Origin: Nitrospirota bacterium | Lineage (GTDB): Bacteria; Nitrospirota; JACRHL01 | Direction: 5' to 3' | NCBI GenBank assembly: GCA_029881725.1 | Contig: JAOUMB010000010.1 | Span: 1,539 to 65,538 of the forward strand | DNA length: 64,000 bases | Shown here: one piece after another, positions 34,349 to 61,793 of the stretch | How the letters are laid out: the number at the start of each line of letters is the position of its first letter | Position numbering within the stretch: the first letter of the stretch is position 1 | Translations under genes and position numbers: made by a program | The notes under the pieces: generated by a model | Told to the model about the DNA's origin: nothing | Database searches by the model: none | The model's input: the letters and a program-made list of their open reading frames with translations, nothing else

Positions 34349-34393
34349 CGGTTTACCTCAGTGCGCGCCCGCAACCGGCCAATAAAAATTCGA

Positions 34394-35983
34394 TCACCGT
34401 TCAATGGTGATATCGGAAAACGACTCGGTGGTGTGGCACCGGCCGCAGTCTCTTCCAAACTGTTCGCTGTGGACATCGTCCTGCAGGTGACAGGCACCGC
34501 AGGTGTTGGGCTGTTTGACACCCTTTTTTGAGGGCGTTTTGTGGCACGCGAGGCAGTCCAACCCCTCGTGCTTGCCGTCCAGCTTGAACTCGGTCTGCCG
34601 GTTGTGGTCAAAGGACCACAGGGGCCACCCGTTGGGGTTGTGGCAGGTGCCGCACAGGCTTCCCAGCCGCCGTTTGTGCTCGTCCTGCTTCTTGTGGCAG
34701 GCATAGCACTCCCCTTCGGTTTTCACGTAGCGCCGGTCCAGGTGGCACTCCTCGCACGGGGTGACCGCGTGCTGGCCGATGAGCGGAAACGGCGTCAGGT
34801 CGTGGTCAAAGCGCACCTGATCCCGCCATCCGGTTTCCCGGTGGCACTGGGCACAGTTTTCGCCCTGGCGCCCGTCGTGCACGTCGTCCCCCTTGTGGCA
34901 GGCATAGCAGTCGGTCTTGAGCTCCTCCTTGTACAGCACCCCCTTGTGACAGGACCGGCAACGGGCCTTTTCGTGGGCGCCCTTCAGGCGGAAATCGGTG
35001 TCCTTGTCGTGGTCGAAGATCACCCGGTCCCACGCCCTGGGCGTGTGGCAGGAGTCGCATTTCTCCCCGTAGCGCCCCTTGTGCTCGTCGTCGTTCTTGT
35101 GGCAACTGTGGCAATCGGTCTTGAGTTCGTCCTTGTACAGGTCGCCGGTATGGCACGCTTTGCAGGTGACCTCCTTGTGGCTGCCCTTCAAGGGAAAATC
35201 GGTGTCCTTGTCGTGGTCAAACCGCACCCGGTCCCACTTGTCCGGGGTGTGGCAATCCTCGCACTTGTCGCCGTTGGCGCCCCGATGCACGTCGTTGATC
35301 TTGTGGCAGGCGACGCAGGTGTCGGGCACCCCCTTGTACTTCTCTCCCGGGTGACACATGGCGCAGGCCACGTCCATATGGGAGTCCCTGAGGGGGAAGT
35401 CGGTCTTGTCGTGGTCGAAGGCGGTTTTCTTCCAGCCGGCGGTGGAGTGGCAGTCCTCGCACTTTTCCCCCAGCCGCCCGTCGTGGGCATCGTCTTCCTT
35501 GTGGCAGGCAAGACAGGTGGCGGGGGCATCGCGGAACTTCTTGTCCGGCTTGTGGCAGCCGTCACAACGCACGCGCTGATGGCGTCCCTTCAGGCGGTAA
35601 TCGGTCTGGTTGTGATCGAAGGTTTCGCGGTTCAGGCCCACGACATCGGCACTCCGGCCCACGTGATCGGTGTGGCAGACCTGACACTCCTGATTCGCCA
35701 CCTGGGGGGAACGGCCGTGAAACCCGCGTTTTTTACCCACGTCGGACGCCACATCCTTGTGGCAGTCCAGGCACAGGTTGTTCTGCACCCCCTTGCTGAA
35801 CCGTTTGTGGCAGTTGGTGCAGGTGTCCTCGTACTTGGCGTGCCCGGAAATCAACTCGCCGGGCATTACCAGCCGCTCAAGCGGACCGGCGAGGGCGCTA
35901 TGGGGAAACGTCAGCACAGCCATGATAAAAAGCGCCAGCGCCGCTACCAGGGCGCGCCGGACGAAAAAATGCCGGTGCGGCAT
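34394..35983 (-). CDS. Periplasmic multihaem c-type cytochrome with about 21 CXXCH (polymer of c7/c3-like trihaem units).
   Basis: Signal peptide MPHRHFFVRRALVAALALFIMAVLTFPHSALA. 21 CXXCH motifs, from CTNCH through CGRCH. Repeating module C..CH..D.H.G..G..C..CH......W....FDH..T.F.L.G.H....C..CH. Its ATG overlaps the stop of the upstream gene (TGATG). Confidence 0.9.
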   Translation of the reverse strand: MPHRHFFVRRALVAALALFIMAVLTFPHSALAGPLERLVMPGELISGHAKYEDTCTNCHKRFSKGVQNNLCLDCHKDVASDVGKKRGFHGRSPQVANQECQVCHTDHVGRSADVVGLNRETFDHNQTDYRLKGRHQRVRCDGCHKPDKKFRDAPATCLACHKEDDAHDGRLGEKCEDCHSTAGWKKTAFDHDKTDFPLRDSHMDVACAMCHPGEKYKGVPDTCVACHKINDVHRGANGDKCEDCHTPDKWDRVRFDHDKDTDFPLKGSHKEVTCKACHTGDLYKDELKTDCHSCHKNDDEHKGRYGEKCDSCHTPRAWDRVIFDHDKDTDFRLKGAHEKARCRSCHKGVLYKEELKTDCYACHKGDDVHDGRQGENCAQCHRETGWRDQVRFDHDLTPFPLIGQHAVTPCEECHLDRRYVKTEGECYACHKKQDEHKRRLGSLCGTCHNPNGWPLWSFDHNRQTEFKLDGKHEGLDCLACHKTPSKKGVKQPNTCGACHLQDDVHSEQFGRDCGRCHTTESFSDITIER

Positions 35984-38145: not shown

Positions 38146-38571
38146 TTCACCTCCCGAAGTCCTCGCAAACGGCGGTCCCTGCCCAATCCCGGTTTAGTAA
38201 GCAAGGAATATGCCATGCATCGGATCTCAAGCAAAGGTGTCTTTTTTTCAACACCTTGTGCCCCTCCCCCCCTGCCCGTTTCTGGCGTCCACTCAACGGG
38301 AAATGGTGCATTTCTACGCGGAGGGAAGTCAATTTTTGCACACGGTGTTCAAAATCGAACGAACTCCCCGCACCCCGCCCCGAATTGTACACGCCATCCA
38401 CCCACGTACTTGGTTGGACGATCCGGATGACCGAAAAGTTCCCGGTACCGGGCCAGCGGGGAGTCATCTCCGTTCCCGAATGGCAAAAAATATGCAGAGG
38501 ACTTCCAAGCCGCCGACCGGTGCGGTTACCATCTAGATGGAGTCCGAACGGGGGAGGCGGAGAGGAGAACT

Positions 38572-44723: not shown

Positions 44724-46028
44724 CTACGGGTGACCCGGGCACGGTTTGCCCGGCACGCAGATCATGATCACCGCCAGCATGCCGCCCGGTCCCACACCCT
44801 CGTTCTGCAACTCGATCTCGAAGTGCGAGTGGAACGGAACGTACATCTCGCCCATGGCGTTCAGGTTGATCGGTGCGTCGGCACCCAGGTCCACCTTGTG
44901 GCCCAGATAGGCCGTACCGCTGAACAACTGGCCAAAACCCACGTTGATGTTCACCGAGTTGTGCTCCGGCGGCACGATCACCGGCACCGGCTGGGTTACG
45001 TCTCCGCCATACACGTCGAACCCGAAGTTCATGGGCGGATCCCAGGTGAAGATGCCGTCCTGGGTGTCTCCCGGATGCATGGTCTGGGTGTACTCCTCAA
45101 TGGCCAGGTCGCCGTTCACGCCGTCGGAACTGAGCGGGCGGCCGTTGCGGGCCAGCACCATCAGATGGTTGCCGTGGCTGTGCAACGGATGCATGTCACG
45201 ATCGAAGGTCACCATGCGCACCAGCAGCCGCTCCTTGGGATACAGCGCCAGCAACGCGCCCATGGGCTGGTTGGGCAGATACGAAACCGTGTCCGGCGCG
45301 ATGGTGTCCGGGAATGCCCGCCCGTTGACGAACCAGTACTGGGGCAGATAGGCGGAGTTCTGATACGGCAGACCCGCCTTGATCCGCTTGTGCTGATCCG
45401 GGTCCACCGCGCTGTAGAACTGCACAACTTCATAGTCGTAGTTGCTGCCGGTGGTGAAGTAGGCCTGGTTGGGCAGCCCGGTGCGCACGATGATCGCGCC
45501 CACCAGTCCCATATCCACATGCTTGTGCGGATAGGTACCGCTGTAATAGGTGTAGGTGCCCGGCTTGGCCGCCACAAATCGATAGGACACGGTCTGTCCT
45601 GGAGCCGCCTCGCCCGCCAGGGAGCGCAGGGATTCCTTGCTGCCGCCGGTGGTGTAGGCCGGGCCGGTGGGCGCCCAGGTCACACCGCCGTCGGACGAGA
45701 ACTCCACGTTCTCGTGCCCGGGAAACAGCAGCGACACCGCATCGGCGCTCATGGGGCCGCTGGGGCCGTCCATGTCCGGCAGCGCGTTGGTCAGGTTGAC
45801 CGTTACCGTGTCACCCACCAGCACGTCGAGCACCGGGCCCGGGTAGCGGAAACCGCCCGCGCTGTCGCGGAAGCTCCACATGTAGATCTGGGCGCCGTCC
45901 GGCATCGAGATCTCACCCGCGTCGGCCGTCAGGTTGAATACCGCCGCACTGGCCGGGGTAAAGGCCATCAGAAGCATCCCGACGGACACCCCTGCCGCCG
46001 TCAGCATGCGTTTCATTACGCCGCGCAT
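44724..46028 (-). CDS. Multicopper-oxidase superfamily (cupredoxin) secreted protein that appears to lack the type-1 Cys ligand.
   Basis: Sec signal MKRMLTAAGVSVGMLLMAFTPASAA. HPLHSHGNH and HSHFE His clusters are retained. At the position where the neighbouring paralogue has YHCHVEPTEHIALGMVG, this protein has YPHKHVDMGLVG (no Cys). Confidence 0.75.
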   Translation of the reverse strand: MRGVMKRMLTAAGVSVGMLLMAFTPASAAVFNLTADAGEISMPDGAQIYMWSFRDSAGGFRYPGPVLDVLVGDTVTVNLTNALPDMDGPSGPMSADAVSLLFPGHENVEFSSDGGVTWAPTGPAYTTGGSKESLRSLAGEAAPGQTVSYRFVAAKPGTYTYYSGTYPHKHVDMGLVGAIIVRTGLPNQAYFTTGSNYDYEVVQFYSAVDPDQHKRIKAGLPYQNSAYLPQYWFVNGRAFPDTIAPDTVSYLPNQPMGALLALYPKERLLVRMVTFDRDMHPLHSHGNHLMVLARNGRPLSSDGVNGDLAIEEYTQTMHPGDTQDGIFTWDPPMNFGFDVYGGDVTQPVPVIVPPEHNSVNINVGFGQLFSGTAYLGHKVDLGADAPINLNAMGEMYVPFHSHFEIELQNEGVGPGGMLAVIMICVPGKPCPGHP

Positions 46029-46109
46029 AGGTCCATCTCCGCGATAGTTGGCAAACGATGTCTGCCGGTCAAGCCGTTCATATCCACTCCTGGCACCCTG
46101 CCTTCCCGG

Positions 46110-47498
46110 TTAGTTCAACCGGATCTCGGTGATCATGCCACCCCTGTTGTCCACTCCCAGGCCTGCCTGGCGATCGGCCAGAGACAGGTTTGCCTGGGTG
46201 TCCAGTTCGCGCCCGTACAGAAAATACGTTCCCGGAGCCAGCCCCGTGGTGTCCAGAATCACGTCCATCTCTTCCCCCCCGGCCAGCGCCAGGGCTGAAC
46301 GATGGTAGGAAAGGTCGGTGCCCGGAACGCCACCCGGGCCGTCCGGTCCGCGCAGGATCTTGGCATCCTTGCCCACCACGTGCATGGGAATGCCCGGGAT
46401 GACCAGCGAGTGCGAACGGTAGGTCAGGTTGTTGAGGCGCAGCAGGATGCGCTGCCCCACATTGGCCGTAATCAGCGACGAATACGGCTGGGCGATATAG
46501 TCTTCCTTGTAGGCGGAAGCGCCGTTCAGCATGACGTTGGCAGCCGGATCCGGCGCCGCCGGGAGTAATGTCTCCGGATAGGCACGACCGTTGAAGGTGT
46601 AGTAGTTGGCCTTGAACTCGGCCCACACGTTGCGCCCTTCCGCCACGGTCTCCAGATTATGGTGCTTGTCCGCGTCCAGGTCGTGCATGTGAATCACCTG
46701 GGCCACGTCATACCGGGTGTTGGGCGCGGCGCCGCCATCGTTGTAGGCGAAGAACTGCCCGGCGGCCGGGTTGTTCTGGGCCGGATTGACGATAATCGTG
46801 CCCACCATGCCCAGGGCGATGTGCTCCGTCGGCTCCACGTGGCAGTGGTAGCCGTAGGTGCCCGGATCGTTCAACTTGTAGAAATAGGTAAAGTTGCTCG
46901 AAGGTGGAACCGCAACCGACATCTCTGGCACCCCGTCAAACGCCGAAACCGCGTGTGCATACCCGTGGAAGTGGACCGTATGCGGGTCCGCCAGGTCGGG
47001 GCGCACCAACAGCCCGAGGTTGGTGATCGTCAGATAGAGGGACTGTCCCTCGTCCACTTCAATATCGGGTGCCGGAAGCGTAGCCTTGAATTTATAGTCG
47101 ATCAGGTCTGCCTCGGGCACTCCCGTCAGGTCCATGAATCCGAAAATGAACAGGTTGCTGCCGTCCGGCATCTTCACATAGCCGTCGGTGGTGCCCACCC
47201 GACGGCATACCGCCGTGGGGTCGATGGGCAGGCCACTCTTGTGGTTGTACGCGCCGTCGCCGTTCCAGTCGATGTCCTCGGCACCCGGGGTTGCGCTGTA
47301 GCCCGGAGCGGCGGGGTCCAGGGACCAGTCGTACGGCATGTTGTCAATATCGTTGGGGCACTGCATGCCCGTGCCCAGGGAAACCGGAGCGGTAACGGCC
47401 CAGGAGTCGGTGGCTCCGGCCAGCCCGGTGGCGGCCATGGCCAGCCCGAGGATCATGGTTTTGGCCAGATTCCATTTGTTGGAGCGCCGCGGCTTCAT
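46110..47498 (-). CDS. Multicopper-oxidase / NirK-like cupredoxin protein with an apparently complete set of copper ligands.
   Basis: Signal peptide MKPRRSNKWNLAKTMILGLAMAATGLAGA (possible Tat-like RR). HTVHFHG (HxHG), YGYHCHVEPTEHIALGMVG (H-C-H...H....M type-1 site), later VIHMHDLDADKHH. RBS GGGGAG. Confidence 0.8.
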   Translation of the reverse strand: MKPRRSNKWNLAKTMILGLAMAATGLAGATDSWAVTAPVSLGTGMQCPNDIDNMPYDWSLDPAAPGYSATPGAEDIDWNGDGAYNHKSGLPIDPTAVCRRVGTTDGYVKMPDGSNLFIFGFMDLTGVPEADLIDYKFKATLPAPDIEVDEGQSLYLTITNLGLLVRPDLADPHTVHFHGYAHAVSAFDGVPEMSVAVPPSSNFTYFYKLNDPGTYGYHCHVEPTEHIALGMVGTIIVNPAQNNPAAGQFFAYNDGGAAPNTRYDVAQVIHMHDLDADKHHNLETVAEGRNVWAEFKANYYTFNGRAYPETLLPAAPDPAANVMLNGASAYKEDYIAQPYSSLITANVGQRILLRLNNLTYRSHSLVIPGIPMHVVGKDAKILRGPDGPGGVPGTDLSYHRSALALAGGEEMDVILDTTGLAPGTYFLYGRELDTQANLSLADRQAGLGVDNRGGMITEIRLN

Positions 47499-47659
47499 CT
47501 CAAATTCTCCCCGCATCAGGTCGATCTTGCGGGTGGCCGGGCACAGGTTCAGATTCCCGGTGTTCTCTGCTTTTGAATCTTGTTTCATACTCAGTCCAAC
47601 CCTTGGTCACACAAAAAAGAGGGGGTGGGGGTGGCCGAAGCCACCCCCACCCGTTGGGG

Positions 47660-50266
47660 TTAGTTCGCGATCACGCAGATGGCGTATACCGTGAGGGTGC
47701 TATCCGAGATTTCACCCGTGGTGTCCACCTTCACGCGCCAGCCGGTGGGGTTGAGCCCGCCGTCGGGCAGGTTCTCCACCAGACGCAGGGCCGGGCCGGA
47801 GAGGCCGAGTCCCACGTGGCCGGTGTAGCCACCGCCGACCGGCTTCTTGCCGACCGGGCAGGTCGCCGCGCCACCCGCCGCCGCCTGTGCGGGCGGTACG
47901 GTCACGGTGGAGCTGATCACCTGGTAGCCGGAGACACCGTTGATGCCGTCGGCACCCGCGGCGCCGGTGGCACCCGTGGAGCCGGTGGCACCCTGCGGAC
48001 CCGTGGCACCCTGCAGGCCCGTGGGGCCCTGGATACCCGTGGCACCCGTGGCACCCACAGCGCCGGTGGCACCGGTGGCACCCACAGGACCCTGGGCACC
48101 GGTGGCACCCGTGGAGCCGGTGGCACCCTGCGGACCTACGTTACCCTGCGGACCCTGGGAGCCCTGCGGACCCGTGGCACCCTGGATACCCTGCGGACCA
48201 GCCGGGCCGGTAGCGCCCTGCGCACCCTGCGCACCCACAGCACCCTGCGGACCGGTGTTACCGGTGGCGCCCTGCGGACCCTGCGGTCCGGCAACGCCCT
48301 GGAGGCCTTGTGCGCCCTGCGGGCCGGTATCACCCTTGGCACCGGTGGCACCGGTGGCACCTTGGGCACCCTGCGGACCAGTGTCACCGGTGGCGCCCTT
48401 CGGACCAGCCGGTCCTGTCAGACCGGTATCACCGGTGGCACCCGTGGCACCCGTGGCGCCAGTAGCGCCGGCAGCGCCCTGCGGACCAGCCGGTCCGGTC
48501 AGACCGGTATCACCGGTGGCACCCGTGGCACCCGTGGCGCCGGCAGCGCCCTGCGGACCTACATTACCCTGCGGACCCTGGTTGCCCTGCAGGCCCTGCG
48601 GACCAATCGGACCCTGGTCACCCTTCAAGCCCTGCGGACCCTGCGGGCCCTGCGGACCCACGGCACCCTGCGGACCGGTGTTACCGGTGGCGCCCTGCGG
48701 ACCCTGCGGTCCGGCAACGCCCTGGAGGCCTTGTGCGCCCTGCGGGCCGGTGTCACCCTTGGCACCGGTGGCACCTTGGGCACCCTGCGGACCAGTGTCA
48801 CCGGTGGCGCCCTTCGGACCAGCCGGTCCGGTCAGACCGGTATCACCGGTGGCACCCGTGGCACCCGTGGCGCCGGCAGCGCCCTGCGGACCCACGTTAC
48901 CCTGCGGACCCTGGTTGCCCTGCAGGCCCTGCGGACCAATCGGACCCTGGTCGCCCTTCAGGCCCTGCGGACCCTGCGGACCGGTATCACCCTTCGCGCC
49001 GGTCGGGCCAACCGGGCCCATCGGGCCAACATCACCCGTGGCGCCGGTGGCACCCTGCGGACCCACGTTACCCTGCGGACCCTGGTTGCCCTGCAGGCCC
49101 TGCGGACCAATCGGACCTTGGTCACCCTTCAGGCCCTGTGGGCCCTGGGCACCGGTGGCACCCTGCGGACCAGCCGGTCCGGTCAGACCGGTATCACCGG
49201 TGGCACCCTTGGCGCCCGTGGCGCCGGTGGCACCCTGCGGACCCACGTTACCCTGCGCACCCTGGGAGCCCTGCGGACCCGTGGCACCCTGGATACCCTG
49301 CGGACCAGCCGGTCCGGTAGCACCCTGCGCACCCTGCGGACCCACGGCACCCTGAGAACCGGTGTTACCGGTGGCGCCCTGCGGACCCTGCGGTCCGGCA
49401 ACGCCCTGGAGGCCTTGTGCGCCCTGCGGGCCGGTATCACCCTTGGCACCGGTGGCGCCCTGGGCACCCTGCGGACCTACGTTACCCTGCGGACCCTGGT
49501 TGCCCTGCAGGCCCTGCGGACCAATCGGACCCTGGTCACCCTTCAGGCCCTGCGGACCCTGCGGACCGGTATCACCCTTCGCGCCGGTCGGGCCAACCGG
49601 GCCCATCGGGCCAACATCACCCGTGGCGCCGGTGGCACCCTTCGGACCAATATCACCCTGCGGACCCTGCGATCCCTTCGGACCGGTGGGGCCATCCAGG
49701 CCCTGCGGACCCACGGAACCGGTGACGCCGGTCGGTCCAACCGGACCCACCGGACCCTGGGCACCGATGGCACCCTGCGGACCCTGCGGACCCTGCGGTC
49801 CCGGGGTCAGGGAGGTATAGGCATACGGAACACTCCCGAACGGACGCGGAGGCGTCAGCTCCTGGAATGCAACGTTAAAGGGGTCGGGGCTGAACCACAC
49901 CCGCAGCAACGCTTCCGAGGTTCCGAAGGCGGTGGCCGGGATGGGGTTCATCCCCGCCGCGCCGAGATCCACGTGAAAATCGCCGTAGACGACCGGAGCC
50001 GCCTGGGAACCGGCGGGCACTTCCACAATCTGGTTGCTCTCCACCGAACCGTCGTTCGACCACAGGGTGGCATACCCCGCCGTCGCATTCCCGGTCACGA
50101 TGGTGAATTTGAAATATCCGGTACCGGTGAACGGAACACCGCTGGCGTCAAGCTTCCCCGAATAGGGAACGACCTCCGGAATAAGGGATTGCTGCGCCCA
50201 CACAGGTACCTGCCCAAAGGCAAGCATGGTGGCCGCGACATACACAAGCAGTCTCGACTTTTTCAT
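47660..50266 (-). CDS. Collagen-like triple-helix repeat protein with N- and C-terminal globular domains.
   Basis: Signal peptide [24 protein letters not shown]. About 165-aa N-terminal domain, then about 200 uninterrupted Gly-X-Y triplets ([25 protein letters not shown]...), then a roughly 95-aa C-terminal domain ending ...[16 protein letters not shown]. Confidence 0.85.
47950..49790. repeat. Internally repetitive DNA encoding the collagen Gly-X-Y tract.
   Basis: Long runs of near-identical 9-27-nt units (ggcacc ctgcggacc ...). Antisense frames give long spurious ORFs (for example 47573..50560 +). Confidence 0.8.
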
Positions 50267-50317
50267 CTTAATACTCCCACTGTTCACAGAACGACACATC
50301 CTTGTTGTTCATTTAAA

Positions 50318-50926
50318 TCAGTACAATCTGTAATCGGCGCTGGTGCTCTCACCGGTCACCGGACCATCACGCCCGGTCATGCTGCCCATCACGTCCACCA
50401 GGACGTAGCCGGCGGCACTGCGGCGGTTACTTACTGTCGGAAACGAACCCGAATCAAACGGCAGGGACCCCAACGCCAGTTCCATCAGATCGGTAAAGCC
50501 GTCCTGATCGCTGTTGGTGAACTGAATCTCCCCCGCGGTCAGCACCACGGTGGCCAATAGCGGATCGGTCCAGTTCAGATTGGCGGTGGTCCGGCCCACC
50601 ACGGTGCGGGTGGAGCCATCATCGATCAGAAACACGATGTCCAGGGCCAGCGTGGGTCCGCTATGGCGGATGCTGTCCTGAACGGCCCCGGTGGCGGGAT
50701 CGATATTCAGTTCCACCACACTTCCATTGGCAAGGTGTGCCTCGGCCACCAGCGTCCCGCCTGGAACCTGATGGTGTACCAGTTGGGAAGGAAGATCGAT
50801 CTTGAAATCCTTCGCCGCCGAAGCACCGCCGCCCTCGGGGCCACCCGTTGCACCGCACCCCGCAGTCACGAGCATCATCGAGACTCCGAGGAACAGCCAC
50901 CGGAACCTTGCGCCGGTTTTTGTCAT
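50318..50926 (-). CDS. Hypothetical lipoprotein.
   Basis: MTKTGARFRWLFLGVSMMLVTAGCG (lipobox VTAGC). No recognisable motifs. Lies immediately upstream of the collagen-like gene. Confidence 0.55.
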   Translation of the reverse strand: MTKTGARFRWLFLGVSMMLVTAGCGATGGPEGGGASAAKDFKIDLPSQLVHHQVPGGTLVAEAHLANGSVVELNIDPATGAVQDSIRHSGPTLALDIVFLIDDGSTRTVVGRTTANLNWTDPLLATVVLTAGEIQFTNSDQDGFTDLMELALGSLPFDSGSFPTVSNRRSAAGYVLVDVMGSMTGRDGPVTGESTSADYRLY

Positions 50927-51447
50927 TGATCTAAAACACACGGTTATTTAACTCCTGCCTTCTGTCGCCAGACCGGTATTTTCCGGCCGATTCGACCTGT
51001 GCTGGATCCGGGTTACTCAAACACCTTAACAACCCGTCCCCATCCGGAGACTTGATCCCATCCATGGGCACTCCACAAACACAGTTCCATTCGTGTCTGC
51101 ACAATATCAGTGCACCAGACGATTGCAGGTTCTTTGCCAATCGTCCCGCTTTTCGTAAACATGATTATCTTACAGTCACTTATGATCGACTCGCACTGAG
51201 CACTCGTCAATTCACAACCAAACACTTTCTATTGCTGGGAAAAAGTTTAGGACTTTCCGACAAAATATTGACGAAACTCTTTCCCTTTGGAAATGAGTAC
51301 ATTTACATAGCACTTTTGAGGGGGGTGGGGGTTCCGCAAGGGGATAGCGGAACACGGAGGCGGTTATCCGGAAACCGGAAGTTCAAGAGGGAGGAATTGA
51401 GGCCAGATTTTCGGCACCGCGCGGGAGGCGCGCGGGGGGAAGGATAA

Positions 51448-51975
51448 TCAGTTACCCAGATCGGTTCCCGAGGTCGCGGTGACGCGGTCCGGAAGCACCG
51501 TTCCGTCCACCCCGATAAAGGTGGTGCCATCCCAGACCAGAGCCCCGTTGTTGCCGGTTCCCGAAAGGTCAAAACGGAGGGTTCCCAGCGTTCCTTCCGA
51601 AACCCCTTCCAGGGCCACCAGCAAACGGCCCGGATCACTGGTCAACGGCAGCATCCGTGCCGCGCCAAGGAGGGGATTGGCGGTGAAGCCGGAAAACGTC
51701 ATCCATGTGGGATCGAACAGGATTTCGGCCGAAATGCCGCCCACCCCGGCCAGGTTCAACGTGGGGTCCAGGTTGGACAGGGACAGGGTCACGTCCGCGC
51801 GGGTTGCGGTGGAGCCGGGTAACAGGGTGAGTGACAGGAGATTTTCACTGGCACCATGCCCGCCGCCCGGAACGACCGGGTCACCCCCACCCACGCCACC
51901 TCCACCACAGGCGGCAAGCAGCACGCAGACCAGTGCGGCGCAAAGAGGCGCTGATATCCAGTGGCCACGGGTCAT
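51448..51975 (-). CDS. Small lipoprotein of about 175 aa, probably beta-rich (speculative cohesin-like partner for the dockerin proteins).
   Basis: MTRGHWISAPLCAALVCVLLAACGGGG (lipobox LAAC). Its ATG overlaps the TGA of the upstream S8 peptidase gene (ATGA). Ser/Thr/Gly-rich, strand-like sequence. Confidence 0.55.
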   Translation of the reverse strand: MTRGHWISAPLCAALVCVLLAACGGGGVGGGDPVVPGGGHGASENLLSLTLLPGSTATRADVTLSLSNLDPTLNLAGVGGISAEILFDPTWMTFSGFTANPLLGAARMLPLTSDPGRLLVALEGVSEGTLGTLRFDLSGTGNNGALVWDGTTFIGVDGTVLPDRVTATSGTDLGN

Positions 51976-53918
51976 GGAAGCCCCCTTTTCGAACCAAACA
52001 GGGACTCCAGCAGCAGCCGGTCGGCGCCGTCCAGAACCCCGTCGCCGTTCAGGTCGAAGCGGGGGTGCGGACTGGGGGAGGTCATCGCCGTGGTCAGGCT
52101 GACCAGGTCGAATGCGTCCACCCGCCCGTCCGTGGCCACGGCGCCACGGTTTACATCGCCCGGCATGGCCTCCGCCGGGGCGCTGCGCAAGGACGGATTT
52201 CCGCCGTCCACCGCTTCCACGGTATAGATGTCCCCCGGACCGAAGGCCCGTCCGGAATCGGTCAGTTCCAGTCCGGTGGTGGTTCCCAGCGCAAACCCGT
52301 TTCGGGATACCGCATAGGCAATCCCCGCGCCCCGGCCGGGCACCGCGTCCCACCGGACGCTCACCCCGGTGCCGGTTTCGGCCAGCCAGAGGTCCGGAAC
52401 ACGTGCCACCTTCGGAGCCAGTCCCCATCCAGCGTTGCCGGCCAGCAGCTGGTTGAAGGCTGCGGTGATGTCAATCAGGCCGAACCCGTACTGGTTGTTC
52501 GGTGTGGCACCCCCATCCAGCGGGATGGCGGTCAATGCCAGCGCGGCCTCCACCTCATCCACGGTCAGATCCGGAAATGCCGACAGCAAGAGCGCCACCG
52601 CGCCGGTCACGTGGGCAGCGGCAATGGAGGTGCCGTTGAAATACTGATAGTTGGCCACGCCGCCATTGCTGAAGGTGGCGGTGTAGACCTCCTGGCCGGG
52701 GGCCACCACATCTGGATACTGGGGGCGGCCGGCACAGGTGGTGGGTCCCTGCCCGCTGCTCTGCCCGGCAAAATTCCACAAAGCCCCCTGCGGGTTGGTG
52801 GCTCCCACCGCGATCACCTCCGGATACCCGGCGGGAAGGTGCGGCTTGCCGTCGTTGCCGGCCGAGGCCACCAGCACCACACCGGCGGCACGCAGGTTTT
52901 GCATGGCCACTTGCAGGTCGGTGTAGGTGTTGCAGGATTTTCCCGGTTCCACGGTGGATTGCAGCGACCAGCTCATGTTGATCACGTCCGGCGGAGTGGT
53001 TTCCAGCAACCACTGCAACGCACCCAACGCGGCGGCCACGTCGGAAGTACCGTTGGCATTGATAATGCGTGCGGCGGCCCACGATGCATCCGGGGCCAGG
53101 CCAATCCCCTGTCCGGAAGCGGCATGCCCCAGAATGGTGCCCATCACACCGGTTCCGTGCCCGGAATAGGCGGAACTGGAGGGGTGATCGGCAGGGACCG
53201 GGGAGCCGGGACACGGCCCGGCACCGGTGCCGGTGGTATCGCACCAGCCACGAGCCCCGGCGCGATAGCGGCTGGGAACCAGATCCGGGTGACGTGGGTC
53301 CACACCGGTATCGGTGGTGGCCACCACAACCTCTCCTCCGGTGTAGCCCATGGCCCACACCGGAGCGGCATTGACCTCGGTCAGGTTCCATCCCTCCGGG
53401 GCCACTCCGCCCCCGCCACCCCCAGCCTGGGGAACCAGCGGCACGCTGACCGGTGCGTTTTCAATGATGCGCGCCTCGGGAAACTGGGCGGCAAGTTGAC
53501 GGATGGTTTCGGGAGTGGCATCCAGGGCCACGGCGTTGATCAGCCACAGGGGGCGCATACGCGTGGCGCGCCCGGCCCGCACATGTTGTTGCAACTGGGG
53601 CAATGCGGTCTGTTGGGTCGCCTCGGCGGCCCGGCGCAGACCGGAAATCATCCCCTGCCGGCGCATTATGCGCGGCTTTCCGGCCACGGACGGGCGCAGT
53701 GCCGGATCGTCGGGAAATACCAGAATCACCGGCACCAGGTCGCCGGACCCGGCGGCGGCCATGCGCCCCTTCAGGGTGGCGTCAATGGTGCCGGCGGATA
53801 CCTCGGGGGAGTCGCTCCACTGCATGGCCAGCGCCAGCAGGAACAGGGCAAAGGCAAACCCCGCGCCGATGGCGGCGGGGGTGCCGTAATTGCCTGATTT
53901 TCCGGAGGGAATGCGCAC
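51972..53918 (-). CDS. Subtilisin-like S8 serine peptidase with a C-terminal type-I dockerin module.
   Basis: GTG start. N-terminal signal anchor. Catalytic triad motifs VVATTDTGVD (Asp), SGHGTGVMGTILG (His), GTSIAAAHVTGAVALL (Ser). C-terminal DVNRGAVATDGRVDAFDLVSL...RFDLNGDGVLDGADRLLL (two Ca-binding dockerin segments). Confidence 0.85.
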   Translation of the reverse strand: MRIPSGKSGNYGTPAAIGAGFAFALFLLALAMQWSDSPEVSAGTIDATLKGRMAAAGSGDLVPVILVFPDDPALRPSVAGKPRIMRRQGMISGLRRAAEATQQTALPQLQQHVRAGRATRMRPLWLINAVALDATPETIRQLAAQFPEARIIENAPVSVPLVPQAGGGGGGVAPEGWNLTEVNAAPVWAMGYTGGEVVVATTDTGVDPRHPDLVPSRYRAGARGWCDTTGTGAGPCPGSPVPADHPSSSAYSGHGTGVMGTILGHAASGQGIGLAPDASWAAARIINANGTSDVAAALGALQWLLETTPPDVINMSWSLQSTVEPGKSCNTYTDLQVAMQNLRAAGVVLVASAGNDGKPHLPAGYPEVIAVGATNPQGALWNFAGQSSGQGPTTCAGRPQYPDVVAPGQEVYTATFSNGGVANYQYFNGTSIAAAHVTGAVALLLSAFPDLTVDEVEAALALTAIPLDGGATPNNQYGFGLIDITAAFNQLLAGNAGWGLAPKVARVPDLWLAETGTGVSVRWDAVPGRGAGIAYAVSRNGFALGTTTGLELTDSGRAFGPGDIYTVEAVDGGNPSLRSAPAEAMPGDVNRGAVATDGRVDAFDLVSLTTAMTSPSPHPRFDLNGDGVLDGADRLLLESLFGSKRGLP

Positions 53919-53933: not shown

Positions 53934-54386
53934 CTAGTTCACCTTCCAGCCATCCACCACCACCTCGCCGAAGTGGAGTTCCACCGGATCACCCGGCTCG
54001 AACACCATATCCGGGTTCTTGAACAGGGAGTAATAGATGCGCTCCGGACGGGTGCGGGTGGCCTTGGTGCGCAACAGGCCGAGCATGGTGTGCGGAATCT
54101 CCGCCACCTGACCGCTGGCCGGCTCCACCAGATACATGGGGATGTCGGAGGCCGCGCGCAGCAGCTTGCTGGCCTGCTCCGGGTTCACCACCCGGAAACG
54201 CAGGTCCAGCATATGCCCTCCGGCGGTGGTGCGCAGGCTGACCAGTTCGATACCGATCTCCCGGGCCAGCCGCTCCTCGGAGGGCGACTTTTTGCTGAGC
54301 ATCGCCGCCGGACCGTGGGCGCAGGCCCCCAATCCGAGCAGCCCCGCGGAAAGCACCAGCGCCGACAGCATTCCGGTCCACTTCAT
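53934..54386 (-). CDS. Hypothetical lipoprotein.
   Basis: MKWTGMLSALVLSAGLLGLGACAHG (lipobox LGAC). About 150 aa, no motifs. Confidence 0.55.
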   Translation of the reverse strand: MKWTGMLSALVLSAGLLGLGACAHGPAAMLSKKSPSEERLAREIGIELVSLRTTAGGHMLDLRFRVVNPEQASKLLRAASDIPMYLVEPASGQVAEIPHTMLGLLRTKATRTRPERIYYSLFKNPDMVFEPGDPVELHFGEVVVDGWKVN

Positions 54387-54411
54387 GCCATTCCCCCTGC
54401 CTGCCGTTCGA

Positions 54412-57400
54412 TTAATTTGCAACACGGTTCCGCTCCCACAATCCCAGGTCGTTCATCTTGACGCAGCCGTCACCGCTCAGATCGGCCGCGGGGTTGAAGC
54501 CCGCGTTACCGGTGCACAGTCCCAGCTGCTCCATCAGCACCAGATAGTCGGCGTCGTCCACCTGACCGTCTCCGTTGATGTCGCCCGACACCGTTCCCGG
54601 TGAAATCGGAGTGACGGTGACCACCACCAGGTCGGTGGTGGCCGCGCCATCCGGGTCGGTCACGGTGAGGGTCGCGTTGTAGGTACCCGCCGCGATGTAG
54701 CTGTGCTGGGTCGGAGCGTCCAAAGTGGTCCGTCCGGTGCCGTCACCGAAGTTCCACAGATAGGTCAGCCCCGCCTGATCCAGCGGACTCGGGTCGGTGG
54801 CCGTGGCATTGAATACCGCGGGGGTTCCGACTCCGACCGTGAGATCCGGCCCGGCGTTCACCACCGGCGCCACGTTGGCCACATCGGCGTAGAAGGCCGC
54901 CTGCTGCACCAGCCCGTCGAGAATCAGCGTCAGGGTGGCGATGTAGGTGCCGCTGTCGGCATAGACGTGGTTGAAGATCACCGGTCCGGTGCCACTCACC
55001 GCCGTGGTCCCGTCACCGTAGTTCCAGGTCCACGACCCGGCCCCCAGTTCGGAGATCGGCTGGGTGATGGCGATGCCCTCGAACCCGGCCAGACGGAACC
55101 CGGCGATATTCGCCAGCGCCTCCGGACAGGTGTGCACCGCCATGGTCGCCGTCATCTCGTCGGCGCCGGCGTCCATGCAGAACTGCAACGGACGCGGGTC
55201 CCCGTCGAAGTCCGCCACCGGCAGGATGATTCCCTGCGCGGCCAGGTCGGTAATACCGGCCTGCAGGGCGGGCGATCCGTCCATGATGTGGTAGTCGCCC
55301 TGGGGCAGCAGCGGGCCGAAGTCCACCGCCACCGGCACCGCCAGCGGGTTGATGGCCACCTCACCAGCGGCGCGTACCACCACACCGGTCAGCCAGTTGT
55401 CATACGGGGCCTTGAACAGCGGCCAGTTGGCGCCGCTGCCCACATAGTTCAGGGTCGGCTGAGCCACCGGAAGGGCGCGCACCAGCGACTGGTCCGAGAA
55501 CAGGTTATGGGTCGCCCGGGTCAGAGTTCCGGTCATCTGGTACAGGTCCAGATCGTAGGCCTGCGGCAGATCGAAGGTCGTGATCGGCTCGTTCCAGCGG
55601 TACGACAGGTTGTCCCAGAACACGTTGTTGTACAGGGCCGGGTTGCTGTGCACCGGTGATCCCGGAACCTGATACGGAACCGAGTTGCGGTACACCACCA
55701 GACCCGCCGAGTGGTGACCCGGATCCAGCAGCAGGGATCCCGCCGTGGAGGTGGTCACGTTCTTGGCGATGGTGTTGTGGGTGAGCACCACATCCAGGGC
55801 GTCGTGGACCTTGATGGCGCCCTGTCCGGCCGCCACGTTGTTCACGATCTGGTTGTTCGTCACCTCGATGCGATGGGCACCGGTCTGGGTGAAGGAAATC
55901 GCCGAACCGTCCTCGGTGGAGAAGTTCCCCTGCAACCGGTTGTTGAGAATCCGCACCTGGCCGGAGCCGGTGGACGCCACGCCCACCGCGCCCGGAGGCG
56001 GACCCTTCACGCTGATGCCGCCACCGTCCACCAATGACCAGTTGAACAGCACTTCGTTGTGCTCGATGACGTTCACCCCGCCGGCCGTGGCCAGATGCGA
56101 GATGCCGCCACCACTGGTGTTGGAGCCGTTGGCGCACACCAGGTTATGGTCGATGCGGTAGTTGCTCACCCCCTGGTAGACGCCGATACCACCGGCCTCA
56201 CCCGGGGTACCGTTGTTCAGCACCAGGTTGTGATGCACGCGGGCACCGTCGATGAAGTTGTCCGGATATCCGGCGAAGCCGATGGCGATACCGCCGGTCA
56301 GCATGCCGAAGTTGTTGATCACCTTGCTGTTGGACACCACGGTGCCGTGGGCGAACACGTTCACGTGCACGCCACCGCCCAGGCGGCCGCCCTCGATCTG
56401 CAAGCCGTCGACGCGCACGCCCGGATCGGGATCCAGCGGCGTTCCAACGGGCAGCGGGTTGATGGACAGATCCCGCGCCAGCACGGTCAGCGTGGACAGG
56501 GCACCGGCGGTCGGATGAATCTGCTCCAGCAGGTTCGCGTCGCGGTTGATGTTCACGATCTGGTCCAGCTTTTGCCGCCAGAGCTGCTTGGACAGCGGCG
56601 TGACCGTCTCGCTCACGATCTGGGTGGCACCGGGGCCGAAGCCCTGAAGAGTGATGCCCTTGTAGACGATCGGGCTTTCCGGGTAGCGCACCGGGAGGTT
56701 CACGTTACCCGGCACCAGCAACAGGGTGCCATACGGAGAGCGGTCGATGGCGTCCTGAATGGTCTCGTTCGGGAACAGCGCCAGGCCCGAGCCGCCCACC
56801 GTCTCGATGTGCGGGTTATAGGCCACGCCGAGCTTGTGGATGGTCATGCCCGAAGGGGTCACCTTCAGATTGTCGGCGGTCACCAGCAACTGGTGCGGAC
56901 CGTCGGCAATCGCGGTCACCCCGTCGGCGGCGGCGATCTGCACGGTAATGGCGGTATCACTCCAGGTGGTCACCGCCAGGGGGATGCCATCCAGGGTCAC
57001 CTTGCCCAGCCCCTGCAGGGCGCCGAAGCCGGTACCAAAGATGTTCAGCACGCCGCCGGTGGCCAGCGGGTCATCCACCCCCGCGATCTGCGGGGTGCGG
57101 GTGGCCGGCTGGGCCGGATCGTCGATCAGGCACACCACGTTTTTGCTGGCAAAGAAGCCGTTCACCGGGGTCAGCGCCATGTCGGCGTAAGAGGTCTTGC
57201 CCGGATACAGCTCGAACTGCATGCGCAAGGTGTCGTAGTCCGGATTGAAGGCCGGATCGATCTGACCGCCGTAGCCCGGATGGTTGGCGTACACCGCCAC
57301 CATGTTGGGCACCATGCCGGACGGGGACGGGGCGTTCACCCGGCTGGTGGACGGCAACAGCACCTCGAAGTAGCCGTTCTCGTCGGTATAGGTGTGCACG

Positions 57401-60400
57401 ACCTCGACACCCTTGTAGTCCTGGACCGAAACCGGCACGAACGCCACGCCGCGCTTGTCGCCGAAGTTGGTCACGGTGCCGCGGGTTTCCAGGTTCAGGT
57501 TGTCGTTTACAAACCCGCGCAGACGCGCCGGGGTCGGCACCTCGGTAAACAGGTGGAAGTCCGACGCCGCGTTGTTGGCGTTGGTGACCGTCACCACCTT
57601 GAGGCCGCAGTCGTGCACCCGGGTCCCCAGGAACGGGTTGGGCGGATCGTTCAACTGCGTCACGTCATACATTGGACCCACGCAGCCGCTGGGCGCCAGC
57701 ATGGCCGCCACCGGTTCCGCATAGGGGTTGGCGCCAAAGGTATCGCCCTGGGTGAAGGCGTTGACGTCGTTGGAGGTCATCAGCTTGTACGGTTCCGGAA
57801 CATGCACCTCCACCAGGTACTTGCCCGGGGCAAGCGGTCCGCACAGGCCGCTTTCCGGGTCGAACAACGCGTTCGGGTCGGTGCTGGTATCGTCACGGCA
57901 GTCCTCGAAGAACTGATACCCGCCGTCAAACACCGCCGGTTTGATCTGGTTCCAGGTCTGCAACACGTCCCGGCACTCCAGGTCCACGTGCTGGGTGACG
58001 GTGCCGTCCGGCTGCAGCTTCTGCACGGTGCAGTTGGCGGGCGGAGCGGCGTTGTAATGGTCGGTCTGCACGGTGCCGATCAGGCGCCCCTTGCGGGCCG
58101 CGCCGGCACTCGGGTCCGGATTGGGGATCATGACTCCCGGGTTTGTGGGGTCCTCGATCATATCCGGGACCGTCACCAGGGCGCCGGTGACCGGGTCGAT
58201 CACCGCTTCGTGCAGGTGCAGGGTGATGTTGGGGATACCCGGCTCCCACGGCTCCGGCCCTTCCAGACTGACGTCGTAGTTGGCGCGGGTGGTGTTGTAC
58301 CAGACCACGCCGGACACGCCACCGTTGATGGCCACATAGTCATTGCCCGCGGCCGCGTTGCCCACGGTCGGATACGGCTTTTTACCCCAGTCGATGCGGT
58401 TGGTGCCACCTTCCAGCATGAAGGTACCCATGGTCAGCACCGGACCCACGTCGGTACGCACCTCCAACGGTGGCTCACCCAGGTTGGTCAGGCCGATAGC
58501 CGCGGTAATGGTGGCGCCGGTGGCGGCCATGTTGGTGTAGCCCACCGCCGGAACCATCCAGTGACCGAACGGGAAGAAGTGACGCAGATGGTATTCGCCG
58601 GCACCGTTGGTGACGGTGGCATACAGGGCGCTGCCGTCCCGGTGGCGGACCTCCACGGCCTCGCCGGAAAGGCCCTGCTCACCAGCATCCTGGATGCCGT
58701 TCTCGTTCCAGTCCAGGAACACGCTGCCTTTGAGCTGACCCCACCAGTCGGGGATCAACAGGGAACGCTGGGCCCCGGCGCCAAAGCGCGGATCGAACAC
58801 CTCCACATCGCGGGACTCGATGCCGTTGGCCAGCAGTTGCGGCATGGACACCGTGTAGGTGGCCATGATGAAGTCCAACGCGTCGTCGAACGCCACCAGA
58901 CTGTAGTTGCCGTCGGGCACGCCGGTGATGGCGAAATTACCGTCCGCATCGCCGCGCACCAGCGCAATCTGCTTGCCGTTGGCGTCATTAAGGGCCAACC
59001 AGGGGAAAGGCACCGGGCCACTGATGCCGTCCGGTACCGTGAACGGCGGCCGCGACGGCTCCACCTTGGACAACTTGCCCCAGAAGCGGCCGGTGCCCGG
59101 CGCCATCAGGCCCGAGTTGCAGGAGCCGACCGCGCACGGCTGCACAAAGCCGTGGAAGATCAGCGCCGCGGTCTCCACCGGGAACACGCCCTCGTTGCCT
59201 TCGAGCACAAAGGCGTCGATGACCTTGCTGCCCTCGATGGTGGTGGTCTGAATCCAACCGGAACCCTGCGGAGGCAGGGCCAGCACCTCGTACTTGCCGG
59301 CCGGGATGTTCTCAATGGAAACAAAGCCGTTGCCGTCGGTCCAGCAGGTACCGCCGGTGCCAGCAATCAGATTGCCCGCGGGATCATATTTGGAGCAGAT
59401 CGGATTGCCGTAGTAGTCCTCGGTCATCATTCCGCCGGCATCGTTGATCACGATCCTGAACGGCTGCACGGTGCCGGAACCCTGGATGTACTCGCCGGAG
59501 TTCAGGTCGTACTGGCGGCCCAGGGTGGGGGCGGTCTCGGTCTGCCAATCCCAGGTGCCGTTCAGGGGCGAGGTGTCCTCGAACACCTGCACCACGATAC
59601 GCGACAGCGGGGTGGGTCCGAAATGCACCGGCACGGTTACCGTAACCGGCGCCGCATCGACGGTAAAGGCGCGCCCGTCCATCTTGTGCAGTCCGCCGTC
59701 CAGGGCGGCCTGATCGGCGACGGTGCCATCGTTGGTGATGACGCTCACGAAGTAACGGCCCGGCAGCAGGTTGACCGTGCCCCCCACACCGCCGACCACC
59801 GTGCCCGCCGCAACCGGCGGGGTGTTGCTCTGATACTGCTTGTGGGACGGGCAGTCATCCGCCACGCCGTTGCCGTTCAGGTCCGCGCACCCCAGAAGGG
59901 ACGGGTCCACGATCGGCGTGTTGTCCACGTTGATCATGAACTTGAAGTTGGGGATCGACGTCGGCAGGCTGGTCAGCGGGTCGATGGTGTCTTCCTGCAC
60001 CAGTACGGTGACCGGAACGGTGCCGGTGGGCGGCGGGTTGGTCCAGTCCACATGGGCGGTGGACTGCACCTGCAGGGTGATGGCGGCCAGCGCCACACCC
60101 CCGTTGCCGTCCTCCGCCTGCACCTGCAGGGTCACGTCGTAGTTTCCACCGGTAGCGGAGTTGCTGATGTTGGGCCAGCTGACCGCGCCGGTGATGTTGT
60201 CGATGGTGGCACCGGGAGGCGGGCTGAGCAGGTAATAGGTGATGGTGTCGGTCACGTTCACGTCGCTGGCGACCACGGTGGCCGAAAACGAGGTGCCAGC
60301 GGTAATGGGCACGGTGCCGGTGATCGGCGTGACGCCGTTCAGCAACACCTGGTCAATTACCGGGTTCATGTTGACCGTGAGGGGAATCGCCTGGGTCACC

Positions 60401-61680: not shown

Positions 61681-61793
61681 GTTCACCACCTCGTTCCTCA
61701 CCGGAGTCATATTCATATTCCTTGCCCCCGAAATCCTCTGGGTACGGCTTTGCAGCCCGTCACGCCGGTCACACATACCATTCCGATCCATGA

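Follow-up and report, generated by a model that had tools for sequence, protein, structure and literature searches.

The protease and lipoprotein genes

The window analysed here is a 64,000-nt stretch of a Nitrospirota contig, and on its minus strand two genes follow one another with overlapping ends. The upstream gene (51972..53918, minus strand, GTG start in the ORF list) encodes a 648-aa S8 subtilase recorded at NCBI as MDH5526519.1, 'S8 family serine peptidase', from a Nitrospirota MAG. Its modules run in the order signal peptide, pro-region, S8 catalytic domain, ~90-aa beta-rich spacer and dockerin. Pfam Peptidase_S8 (PF00082) matches residues 195-480 at E=1.2e-44, and this catalytic domain (52479..53336, minus strand), when aligned to subtilisin BPN', carries the Asp-His-Ser triad in order together with the oxyanion Asn, at D203 (53310..53312), H254 (53157..53159), N355 (52854..52856) and S431 (52626..52628; computed positions, all minus strand). 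We take the equivalent BPN' residues to be D32, H64, N155 and S221. The alignment bears out the intact Asp/His/Ser motifs claimed in an earlier note on this DNA. That note had also described an N-terminal signal anchor, and here we differ: residues 1-31 (53826..53918, minus strand), with the core AAIGAGFAFALFLLALA, more likely form a cleaved Sec signal peptide. The likely SPase I site, ALA|MQ, is our reading of the -3/-1 rule; homologues offer AWA|G and VLA|K, and signal peptides of typical cleavable form are seen in the protease homologues of loci L007, L010 and L011. By sequence, the protease appears to carry its own N-terminal pro-region; residues 41-363 of pro-subtilisin E (3whi_A) align to its residues 124-487 (phmmer), and the I9 propeptide family has no Pfam match in the protease at E<=1.

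The two genes meet in an ATGA stop/start overlap (51972..51975, minus strand), the junction reading ...GGGGGCTTCCATGACC, with the protease TGA at 51974..51972 and the lipoprotein ATG at 51975..51973, as the earlier note had it. A G-rich, Shine-Dalgarno-like run (51981..51985) lies 5 nt upstream of the overlap. Overlaps of 4 nt are the commonest class in bacterial operons and unremarkable alone. Judged from the homologous loci, however, retention of the 4-nt NTGA overlap in eight of ten diverged lineages exceeds chance, and purine-rich Shine-Dalgarno-like motifs stand upstream of these overlaps too. The arrangement is consistent with translational coupling of the two genes, which we infer; the 'fixed stoichiometry' previously read from it was overstated, as 4-nt overlaps are common and do not prove coupling.

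The downstream gene (51448..51975, minus strand; ORF list, NCBI and family alignment) encodes a 175-aa lipoprotein recorded as MDH5526518.1, 'hypothetical protein'. Its N-terminus, MTRGHWISAPLCAALVCVLLAAC|GGGG, comprises a signal peptide and lipobox (residues 1-23; 51907..51975, minus strand) in which L-A-A-C23 fits the SPase II pattern [LVI][ASTVI][GAS]C. Cys23, the predicted lipidated residue, and the following Gly24 (+2) are invariant in all 22 aligned family members. A Gly/Pro-rich and probably flexible tether follows (residues 24-43, GGGGVGGGDPVVPGGGHGAS; 51847..51906, minus strand), in which residues 26-40 have a pLDDT below 50; a low-complexity Gly-rich region is found in all family members. 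The remainder, residues 45-175 (51451..51843, minus strand), forms a single predicted domain, a nine-strand beta-sandwich of cohesin type. Lack of conservation of this ORF, or a true start elsewhere, had been named as grounds for doubt; family members keep the ORF, and the conservation of signal peptide and lipobox confirms where it starts. Two other readings of the frame were set aside. One of 326 aa (ATG at 52428) overlaps the conserved spacer and dockerin coding region, while every homologue begins, with a signal peptide, at the overlap, and a 148-aa call (P0001) is without the signal peptide conserved in 22/22 members.

Cohesin and dockerin assignments

On profile homology and modelled fold, the lipoprotein is a highly diverged cohesin. 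Direct library searches do not reveal this: the window protein has no Pfam Cohesin match even at E<=10 and reaches no Pfam or NCBIfam cohesin threshold, and P0005, the highest-scoring family member, reaches 17.2 bits where the Pfam Cohesin cut-off is 24.1. The sole Pfam/NCBIfam match of the lipoprotein, LSDAT_prok at E=0.05, is noise, and a word-indexed protein search returned three close homologues only. A family profile built from three sequences found 53 matches among 1.8 billion representatives, of which ~25 are single-domain lipoproteins 173-204 aa long and the rest multi-domain proteins. Multi-cohesin proteins were matched at E from 4e-9 to 1e-4 in this 1.8-billion library; Pfam Cohesin (PF00963) is present in 8/8 of the multi-domain matches tested (E from 1e-15 to 4e-63), and a domain-only HMM aligned to each of their successive cohesin repeats. 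Sequence matches of the family profiles in the PDB (scFv linkers, other lipoproteins) were discarded as compositional look-alikes of the signal peptide, lipobox and Gly linker.

The predicted structure points the same way. AlphaFold2 gave too weak a model from only three sequences (pLDDT 57), and we used the model from a 22-sequence alignment (mean pLDDT 85.1, pTM 0.73, above 90 in the domain). In it the domain adopts the nine-stranded, flattened beta-sandwich (jelly-roll) characteristic of cohesins, and cohesins make up the whole of the top 50 Foldseek matches in the PDB, with types I, II and III and A. fulgidus represented (E from 2e-7, target TM 0.65-0.71). The fold prediction that the earlier note had proposed for this product has therefore yielded a beta-sandwich with cohesins as its PDB neighbours. 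Among the roles then suggested, that of a cohesin-like dock is strongly supported by the profile homology to Pfam-certified cohesins and by conserved adjacency to a dockerin-bearing S8 protease. Those of protease inhibitor or maturation factor lose ground, as no inhibitor-fold similarity was found and the protease appears to have its own pro-region; neither Pfam nor NCBIfam places a peptidase-inhibitor family in the lipoprotein, and its structural neighbours are cohesins.

The dockerin described earlier at the C-terminus of the protease (residues 587-638; 52005..52160, minus strand) appears to hold up as well. Dockerin_1 (PF00404) scores 20.9 bits there, just below the 22.9 cut-off, and the PDB matches of the 65-aa tail alone are without exception solved dockerins or chains that carry one (phmmer; 2y3n_B at E=6e-7, 5lxv_B at E=0.003). 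A precomputed PF00404 match exists in P0063, a protease homologue at 44% identity; a search with the C-terminal 154 aa of the protease alone gave no matches. The second dockerin repeat is canonical, DLNGDGVLDGAD plus helix (listed among the features as DLNGDGVLDGADRLLLESLFG). The first, GDVNRGAVATDGRVDAFD, has ~5 extra residues in an expanded loop, GDVN-RGAVATDG-RVDAFDL, and despite them retains positions 1, 3, 9 and 12 (D-V-N...V-D-A-F-D). Because this loop is non-canonical, Ca2+ binding at it is uncertain. The same peculiarity is common to all paired proteases, as the motif G[DN][VI][NSA] - insertion - R[VI]D[AG]FDL and, after it, a canonical second loop. Within these dockerins A/G-F is conserved at helix-1 positions 10-11 and the second repeat is variable, which suggests one dedicated binding face.

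Conservation of the pair and the surrounding locus

The gene immediately upstream of the cohesin encodes an S8 protease with a dockerin, expanded in its first loop and canonical in its second, in 10/10 core lineages; cohesin identity among the aligned lineages is 23-65%, and the synteny rests on 10 short metagenomic lineages, all probably of one phylum. Looked up from the cohesin side, seven of seven core members (31-65% identity) lie directly downstream of an S8 protease that ends in a dockerin. In the reverse look-up, starting from the protease, a cohesin lipoprotein of the family comes after each of the two closest full-length homologues examined (43-44% identity) and is missing after P0067, an S8 protease without a dockerin. 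In L007, from a Leptospirillia MAG, the pair occurs alone among unrelated genes, and so constitutes an autonomous module. A distant relative at 23% identity (P0055) sits between a cohesin-ending protein and a protein with an N-terminal dockerin. All named family members are restricted to Nitrospirota. Scans of a genome collection and a metagenome collection for the pair gave no confirmed locus, and our literature search turned up neither a report of a cohesin lipoprotein and a subtilase as partners nor one of a Nitrospirota cohesin-dockerin system.

Upstream of the protease, in the same gene string, lies a giant surface-type protein of 2459 aa (54412..61791, minus strand; 2432 aa as called in L003), with cupredoxin-like, He_PIG, SdrD_B, beta-helix, PKD and dockerin domains (Pfam). 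Its dockerin (residues 2403-2449; 54445..54585, minus strand) is canonical and, at 24.3 bits, above the Dockerin_1 cut-off; the window contains no dockerin motif besides this one and that of the protease. A 150-aa lipoprotein with lipobox LGAC (53934..54386, minus strand) separates the giant protein from the protease. In hhalign comparisons with the cohesin family, this protein and a 207-aa lipoprotein of the locus aligned in the signal/lipobox region only, and are not cohesins by sequence. With a single cohesin in the 64 kb, and two dockerins neither of which belongs to a glycoside hydrolase, the locus does not amount to a cellulosome. The locus also encodes multicopper-oxidase-like proteins, multihaem cytochromes and a collagen-like neighbour. 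Scanning the window for Rfam families and tRNAs yielded no matches.

A proposed lipid-anchored docking model and its alternatives

We consider it probable that the two genes form a minimal, self-contained Nitrospirota cohesin-dockerin system, in which a lipid-anchored cohesin tethers a Sec-exported protease to the envelope. The protease would be exported by Sec, lose its signal peptide and mature, as other subtilases do, by way of its own N-terminal pro-region. The anchor would consist of a lipidated Cys, a ~20-residue Gly/Pro tether and then a single diverged cohesin domain, into which the protease dockerin would plug, presumably 1:1 and in a Ca2+-dependent manner, so that an otherwise soluble protease would be held on the membrane. 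That membrane would be the outer one if the +2 Gly obeys the E. coli Lol rule, with either face conceivable. Stop/start overlap and internal Shine-Dalgarno sequence would keep synthesis of enzyme and anchor linked. Binding of cohesin to dockerin, its Ca2+ dependence, its stoichiometry, the membrane and face involved and the substrates of the protease are all inferred.

With two dockerins for one cohesin in the window, the cohesin may instead serve, or also serve, the giant protein, which is a possible second client. It could even be that the lipoprotein anchors mainly or also the 2459-aa protein, with the protease docked beside it as a processing enzyme or competing for the socket. The giant's dockerin is, after all, the canonical one, above the Pfam cut-off, and the genes all share a strand and are separated by short gaps. 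We nevertheless regard this as rather unlikely, given that in 10 lineages, without exception, the cohesin gene accompanies the protease gene, that the pairs of L007 and L008 have no giant dockerin protein nearby, and that the two dockerins differ in their first repeats and so need not share a partner. A more elaborate version, speculative and somewhat less probable still, would have a surface-exposed cohesin act as a shared socket for the subtilase and the cupredoxin/PKD/beta-helix protein of 2459 aa, a small outer-membrane 'dockosome' in which the protease processes or turns over the giant and perhaps the collagen-like neighbour. If that were so, the cohesin-dockerin assembly would be part of a Nitrospirota extracellular redox or matrix apparatus.

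Two further readings dispense with docking altogether. Enzyme-inhibitor pairs are typically encoded like this, a protease and a small envelope protein close together in one operon, and the lipoprotein might be an inhibitor, immunity protein or maturation chaperone acting on the catalytic domain, silencing the subtilase in the periplasm. L010 does have a separate ORF ending in a propeptide-like domain before the protease, so that trans-acting pro-domains may exist in the family. This nonetheless seems to us the least probable account, since fold and profile homology lead to cohesins and to no inhibitor family, the protease appears to have its own pro-region, and a dockerin needless for inhibition is kept in every paired protease. 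It is also very unlikely that the cohesin-fold domain does some other job, such as carbohydrate or matrix binding or a structural role, with the pairing reflecting co-regulation only: the profile homology is specifically to cohesins, the top structural matches are set apart from other folds, and the partner dockerin is always next door, and is absent from the one neighbouring S8 protease without the cohesin gene.

The proposed docking of a protease on a lipid-anchored cohesin can be set beside several known systems. Clostridial type I complexes (1OHZ, 2VN6, 6KGC, 5NRK) likewise place a C-terminal two-repeat dockerin on a secreted enzyme, and by analogy their 1:1, Ca2+-dependent plug-and-socket binding is to be expected of the Nitrospirota pair. 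Clostridial cellulosomes, in contrast, use a multi-cohesin scaffoldin where here there is a single cohesin, and SLH or sortase attachment where here there would be a lipid-modified Cys; the client here is a protease and not a carbohydrate-active enzyme, the host is a diderm Nitrospirota, the cohesin has diverged beyond the reach of Pfam, the dockerin has an enlarged first loop and the genes of enzyme and anchor overlap. Non-cellulosomal cohesin-dockerin modules were reportedly treated by Peer et al. in 2009. The A. fulgidus cohesin 2XDH and the R. flavefaciens autonomous cohesin 4N2O are similarly stand-alone or single cohesins outside cellulose degradation, but are not lipoproteins. To our knowledge, no non-cellulosomal cohesin has been described whose gene forms an obligate, overlapping pair with that of a subtilase. 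A further parallel comes from C. thermocellum, where an S8 protease with a double dockerin (dDoc_0689) binds ScaD, a scaffoldin bound to the cell (Chen et al. 2024, summarised in PMC12484212). There too, an S8 subtilase is proposed to be surface-tethered via its dockerin and not integrated in the enzyme scaffold; it differs in its two tandem dockerins, full cellulosome, monoderm host and multi-module scaffoldin encoded elsewhere. For diderms, the 'planctosome' of Planctomycetes has been hypothesised as a peptide-degrading, cellulosome-like assembly (PMC6461901), and a complex with a dockerin-bearing S8 protease has been hypothesised for Ca. Stygibacter of the Cloacimonadota (PMC8542988). Both models propose dockerin-bearing peptidases on the outer surface via cohesins, yet through very large multi-domain anchors or scaffolds (LTD domain or T9SS C-terminal domain), as against the 175-aa, one-cohesin lipoprotein here.

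No new principle is involved, non-cellulosomal cohesin-dockerin pairs and dockerin-bearing S8 proteases being already known. What the docking model would add is cohesin-dockerin docking at its genetically simplest, a single enzyme and its lipid-anchored socket encoded by overlapping genes, in a diderm phylum that has not been associated with cellulosomes. It would also add lipoprotein anchoring to the known cohesin fixings (SLH, sortase, T9SS), and give a function to ~25 clusters of 'hypothetical' Nitrospirota lipoproteins missed by current domain libraries. As a compact and probably orthogonal pair with an unusual first dockerin loop, it could serve designer assemblies and studies of how binding specificity evolves.

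The downstream lipoprotein and the protease

The lipoprotein encoded at 51448..51975 (-) is 175 aa long and starts MTRGHWISAPLCAALVCVLLAAC, a lipobox with Cys23; some 20 residues rich in Gly and Pro link this lipobox to a ~130-aa domain. NCBI labels it "hypothetical protein" (MDH5526518.1, Nitrospirota MAG), the curated domain libraries Pfam and NCBIfam gave no match, and a word-indexed search returned only three relatives. An exhaustive HMM search from the alignment of these three returned 53 proteins, about 25 of them single-domain (173-204 aa) and the others multi-domain. Pfam Cohesin is present, and scores strongly, in each of the 8 multi-domain matches tested, and an HMM built from the domain alone, excluding signal peptide and linker, aligns to one cohesin repeat of these proteins after another. 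Every one of the 22 sequences in the family alignment has the lipobox Cys followed by Gly; five members have a taxon name, each being from a Nitrospirota or Leptospirillia MAG and annotated as hypothetical. AlphaFold on the three-sequence alignment was unreliable and the 22-sequence run was used instead, giving a nine-strand sandwich (mean pLDDT 85.1, pTM 0.73; ten-residue block means of 86-98 from residue 41 on). Its top 50 Foldseek matches in the PDB are all cohesins (E from 2e-7, target-normalised TM 0.65-0.71). Profile homology and modelled fold together thus identify the lipoprotein as a predicted cohesin, in line with the earlier note, which had listed a cohesin-like dock among its options.

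The protease ORF (51972..53918, -; GTG start, 648 aa) matches Pfam Peptidase_S8 over residues 195-480 (E=1.2e-44), and when it is aligned to subtilisin BPN', D203, H254 and S431 fall at the triad positions and N355 at that of the oxyanion Asn, so the motifs are intact as had been claimed. The N-terminus was previously read as a signal anchor; a positively charged start precedes a hydrophobic core of 17 residues, and under the -3/-1 rule ALA↓MQ would be a cleavage site, so that the segment is more likely a Sec signal peptide that is removed; homologues have VLA↓K and AWA↓G there. Pfam gave no I9 propeptide match, and a pro-region is likely because the phmmer alignment of residues 124-487 extends over pro-subtilisin E (3whi_A, residues 41-363). 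An unassigned beta-rich spacer of ~90 aa separates the catalytic domain from the tail, GDVNRGAVATDGRVDAFDLVSLTTAM...DLNGDGVLDGADRLLLESLFG. This tail scores 20.9 bits against Pfam Dockerin_1, where the cut-off is 22.9; when the 65 aa are searched alone against the PDB, all matches are dockerin chains (2y3n_B, E=6e-7), 5lxv_B aligning over both repeats, and a homologue at 44% identity has a precomputed PF00404 match. These matches favour a C-terminal dockerin, with a canonical repeat 2 and a repeat 1 loop holding ~5 extra residues. At every cohesin-side locus the paired-protease dockerins share G[DN][VI][NSA], an insertion and R[VI]D[AG]FDL, then a canonical second loop. The repeats are asymmetric, A/G-F being conserved in helix 1 and the helix 2 residues variable, and this asymmetry suggests one binding mode.

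Gene junction and conservation of the pair

The protease TGA overlaps the lipoprotein ATG, as reported, in an ATGA at 51975..51972 (-), with GGGGG upstream at 51985..51981 (-). The overlap, whose conservation the earlier note had proposed checking, recurs as ATGA in five lineages and as GTGA in three (8 of 10), and in the remaining two the genes are 1 and 11 nt apart; SD-like purine-rich motifs precede the junctions. In bacteria no class of gene overlap is commoner than that of four nucleotides. The overlap and internal SD are consistent with translational coupling, which would suit a 1:1 complex; the fixed stoichiometry of the earlier note goes further than this.

At all cohesin-side loci examined (L001, L002, L005, L006, L007/L008, L009 and L010) a dockerin-ending S8 protease lies directly upstream of the cohesin gene. 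From the protease side, the two nearest full-length homologues (P0064 and P0065, 43-44% identity) were looked up, and each is followed by a 173-174-aa family member (domain HMM 5e-47 and 3e-38); P0067, an S8 protease at 37% identity without a dockerin, has no cohesin-family neighbour. The pairing is conserved and reciprocal. At L007, from a Leptospirillia MAG, the pair sits amid unrelated genes for HtrA, HSP20, a response regulator and a TPR protein, and it is therefore an autonomous module. Pattern scans of genome and metagenome collections gave no match, so the synteny rests on ten metagenomic lineages, mostly short.

The most distant family member, P0055 (23% identity, lipobox CGGDG; locus L014, 2..2058), has one neighbour ending in a clear cohesin and another with an N-terminal dockerin and Ig-like repeats; L014 is a distinct, non-protease cohesin-dockerin cluster. 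At L010 (3..365) an ORF upstream of the dockerin-protease has a subtilisin-propeptide-like domain at its end (…RIRPLWITNSIAVHATASVIRELE…) and overlaps the protease start by 4 nt; the protease has a pro-region of its own. The ORF may encode an independent pro-domain or an inhibitor, or may be the end of another gene related to proteases.

Proposed anchoring of the protease and alternative roles

An enzyme-anchor pair is the best-supported reading of these sequences. After export of the protease via Sec, the cohesin, lipid-anchored through a flexible tether, would capture the protease dockerin and so hold the enzyme on the envelope. Outer-membrane sorting of lipoproteins with Gly at +2 (the Lol rule) is established for enterobacteria; should the E. 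coli rule apply in Nitrospirota, the Gly at +2 would send the cohesin lipoprotein to the outer membrane.

A role as chaperone, or as the protease inhibitor or maturation factor raised in the earlier note, is not supported: the fold, the homology and the dockerin retained in all paired proteases argue against it. That the cohesin fold serves some function other than dockerin binding is unlikely given its sequence-level homology to cohesins and its obligate dockerin neighbour. A six-frame scan of the 64-kb window found one cohesin and two dockerin motifs, the second, canonical and above the Pfam cut-off, ending a giant 2459-aa secreted protein encoded upstream of the protease (54412..61791, -). 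Because of this dockerin the giant protein is a possible second client of the single cohesin, which may serve it mainly or additionally; such a role may apply at this locus, though not as a rule.

This enzyme-anchor pair would work like a type I cohesin-dockerin pair. It resembles the C. thermocellum double-dockerin S8 protease with proposed surface tethering (PMC12484212) and the hypothesised peptide-degrading cellulosome-like assemblies of Planctomycetes (PMC6461901) and Cloacimonadota (PMC8542988). A cellulosome, in contrast, combines a multi-cohesin scaffoldin with carbohydrate-active enzymes, and it was rejected here as both are absent from the locus. In full-text literature searches nothing came up on a lipoprotein cohesin, an obligate gene pair of subtilase and cohesin, or a cohesin-dockerin system of Nitrospirota.

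Neighbouring genes and the downstream spacer

The giant protein also holds cupredoxin-like, He_PIG, SdrD_B, beta-helix and PKD domains (Pfam). Its cupredoxin match (Cu-oxidase_3) lies near the N-terminus and seems to have lost the usual His-rich copper motifs, reading FLYESATNQ where multicopper oxidases have WYHSH. Between it and the protease is a small lipoprotein (53934..54425, -; ATG at 54386, 150 aa, lipobox LGAC), conserved in locus L003. It has no Pfam or NCBIfam match, and was rejected as a cohesin when hhalign found no similarity to the cohesin family.

Downstream of the cohesin gene lie another lipoprotein of ~186-207 aa (50318..50941, -) with one thrombospondin/dockerin-like motif, DQDGFTD, then an 879-aa protein (47660..50299, -; Pfam Collagen E=1e-96) that is nearly all collagen G-X-Y repeats plus a globular C-terminal domain, and a strong terminator (47652..47623, -) 3' of its gene. 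Encoded near the locus (44724..47588 and 32573..36064, -) are two multicopper-oxidase-like proteins, of 434 and 492 aa, and two multihaem cytochromes, large at 556 and 591 aa, with cytochrome c7/MtrC-like domains; they suggest that this part of the Nitrospirota MAG is an extracellular redox neighbourhood. Third-position GC is 0.71-0.78 in the protease, cohesin, next lipoprotein and collagen-like genes (47660..53918), and higher, 0.84-0.86, in the giant gene and its neighbours; the lower values may mark a different origin or expression class.

The 500-bp spacer 3' of the cohesin gene (50942..51447, -), beyond which the next lipoprotein gene lies, had no Rfam match. It shows block conservation with its L002 counterpart (1816..2303), the blocks having identity above that of the flanking coding genes (proteins ~62% identical), and a leader of ~180 nt 5' of the lipoprotein gene that follows is also conserved. 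Within the spacer is a sigma-54-type -24/-12 element, TGGCAAAGAACCTGCA (51139..51124, -), and a candidate enhancer-binding site, the conserved block GGAAAGAGTTTCGTCAATATTTTGTCGGAAAGTCCTAAACTTTTTCCCAG of 50 nt, lies about 100 nt upstream of it. Two more exact TGGCA-N7-TGCW matches, at 38200..38215 (-) and 38481..38496 (+) in the spacer at ~37100-38570, could be additional sigma-54 promoters; the count in the window, 3 observed against 1.4 expected, is by itself not significant.
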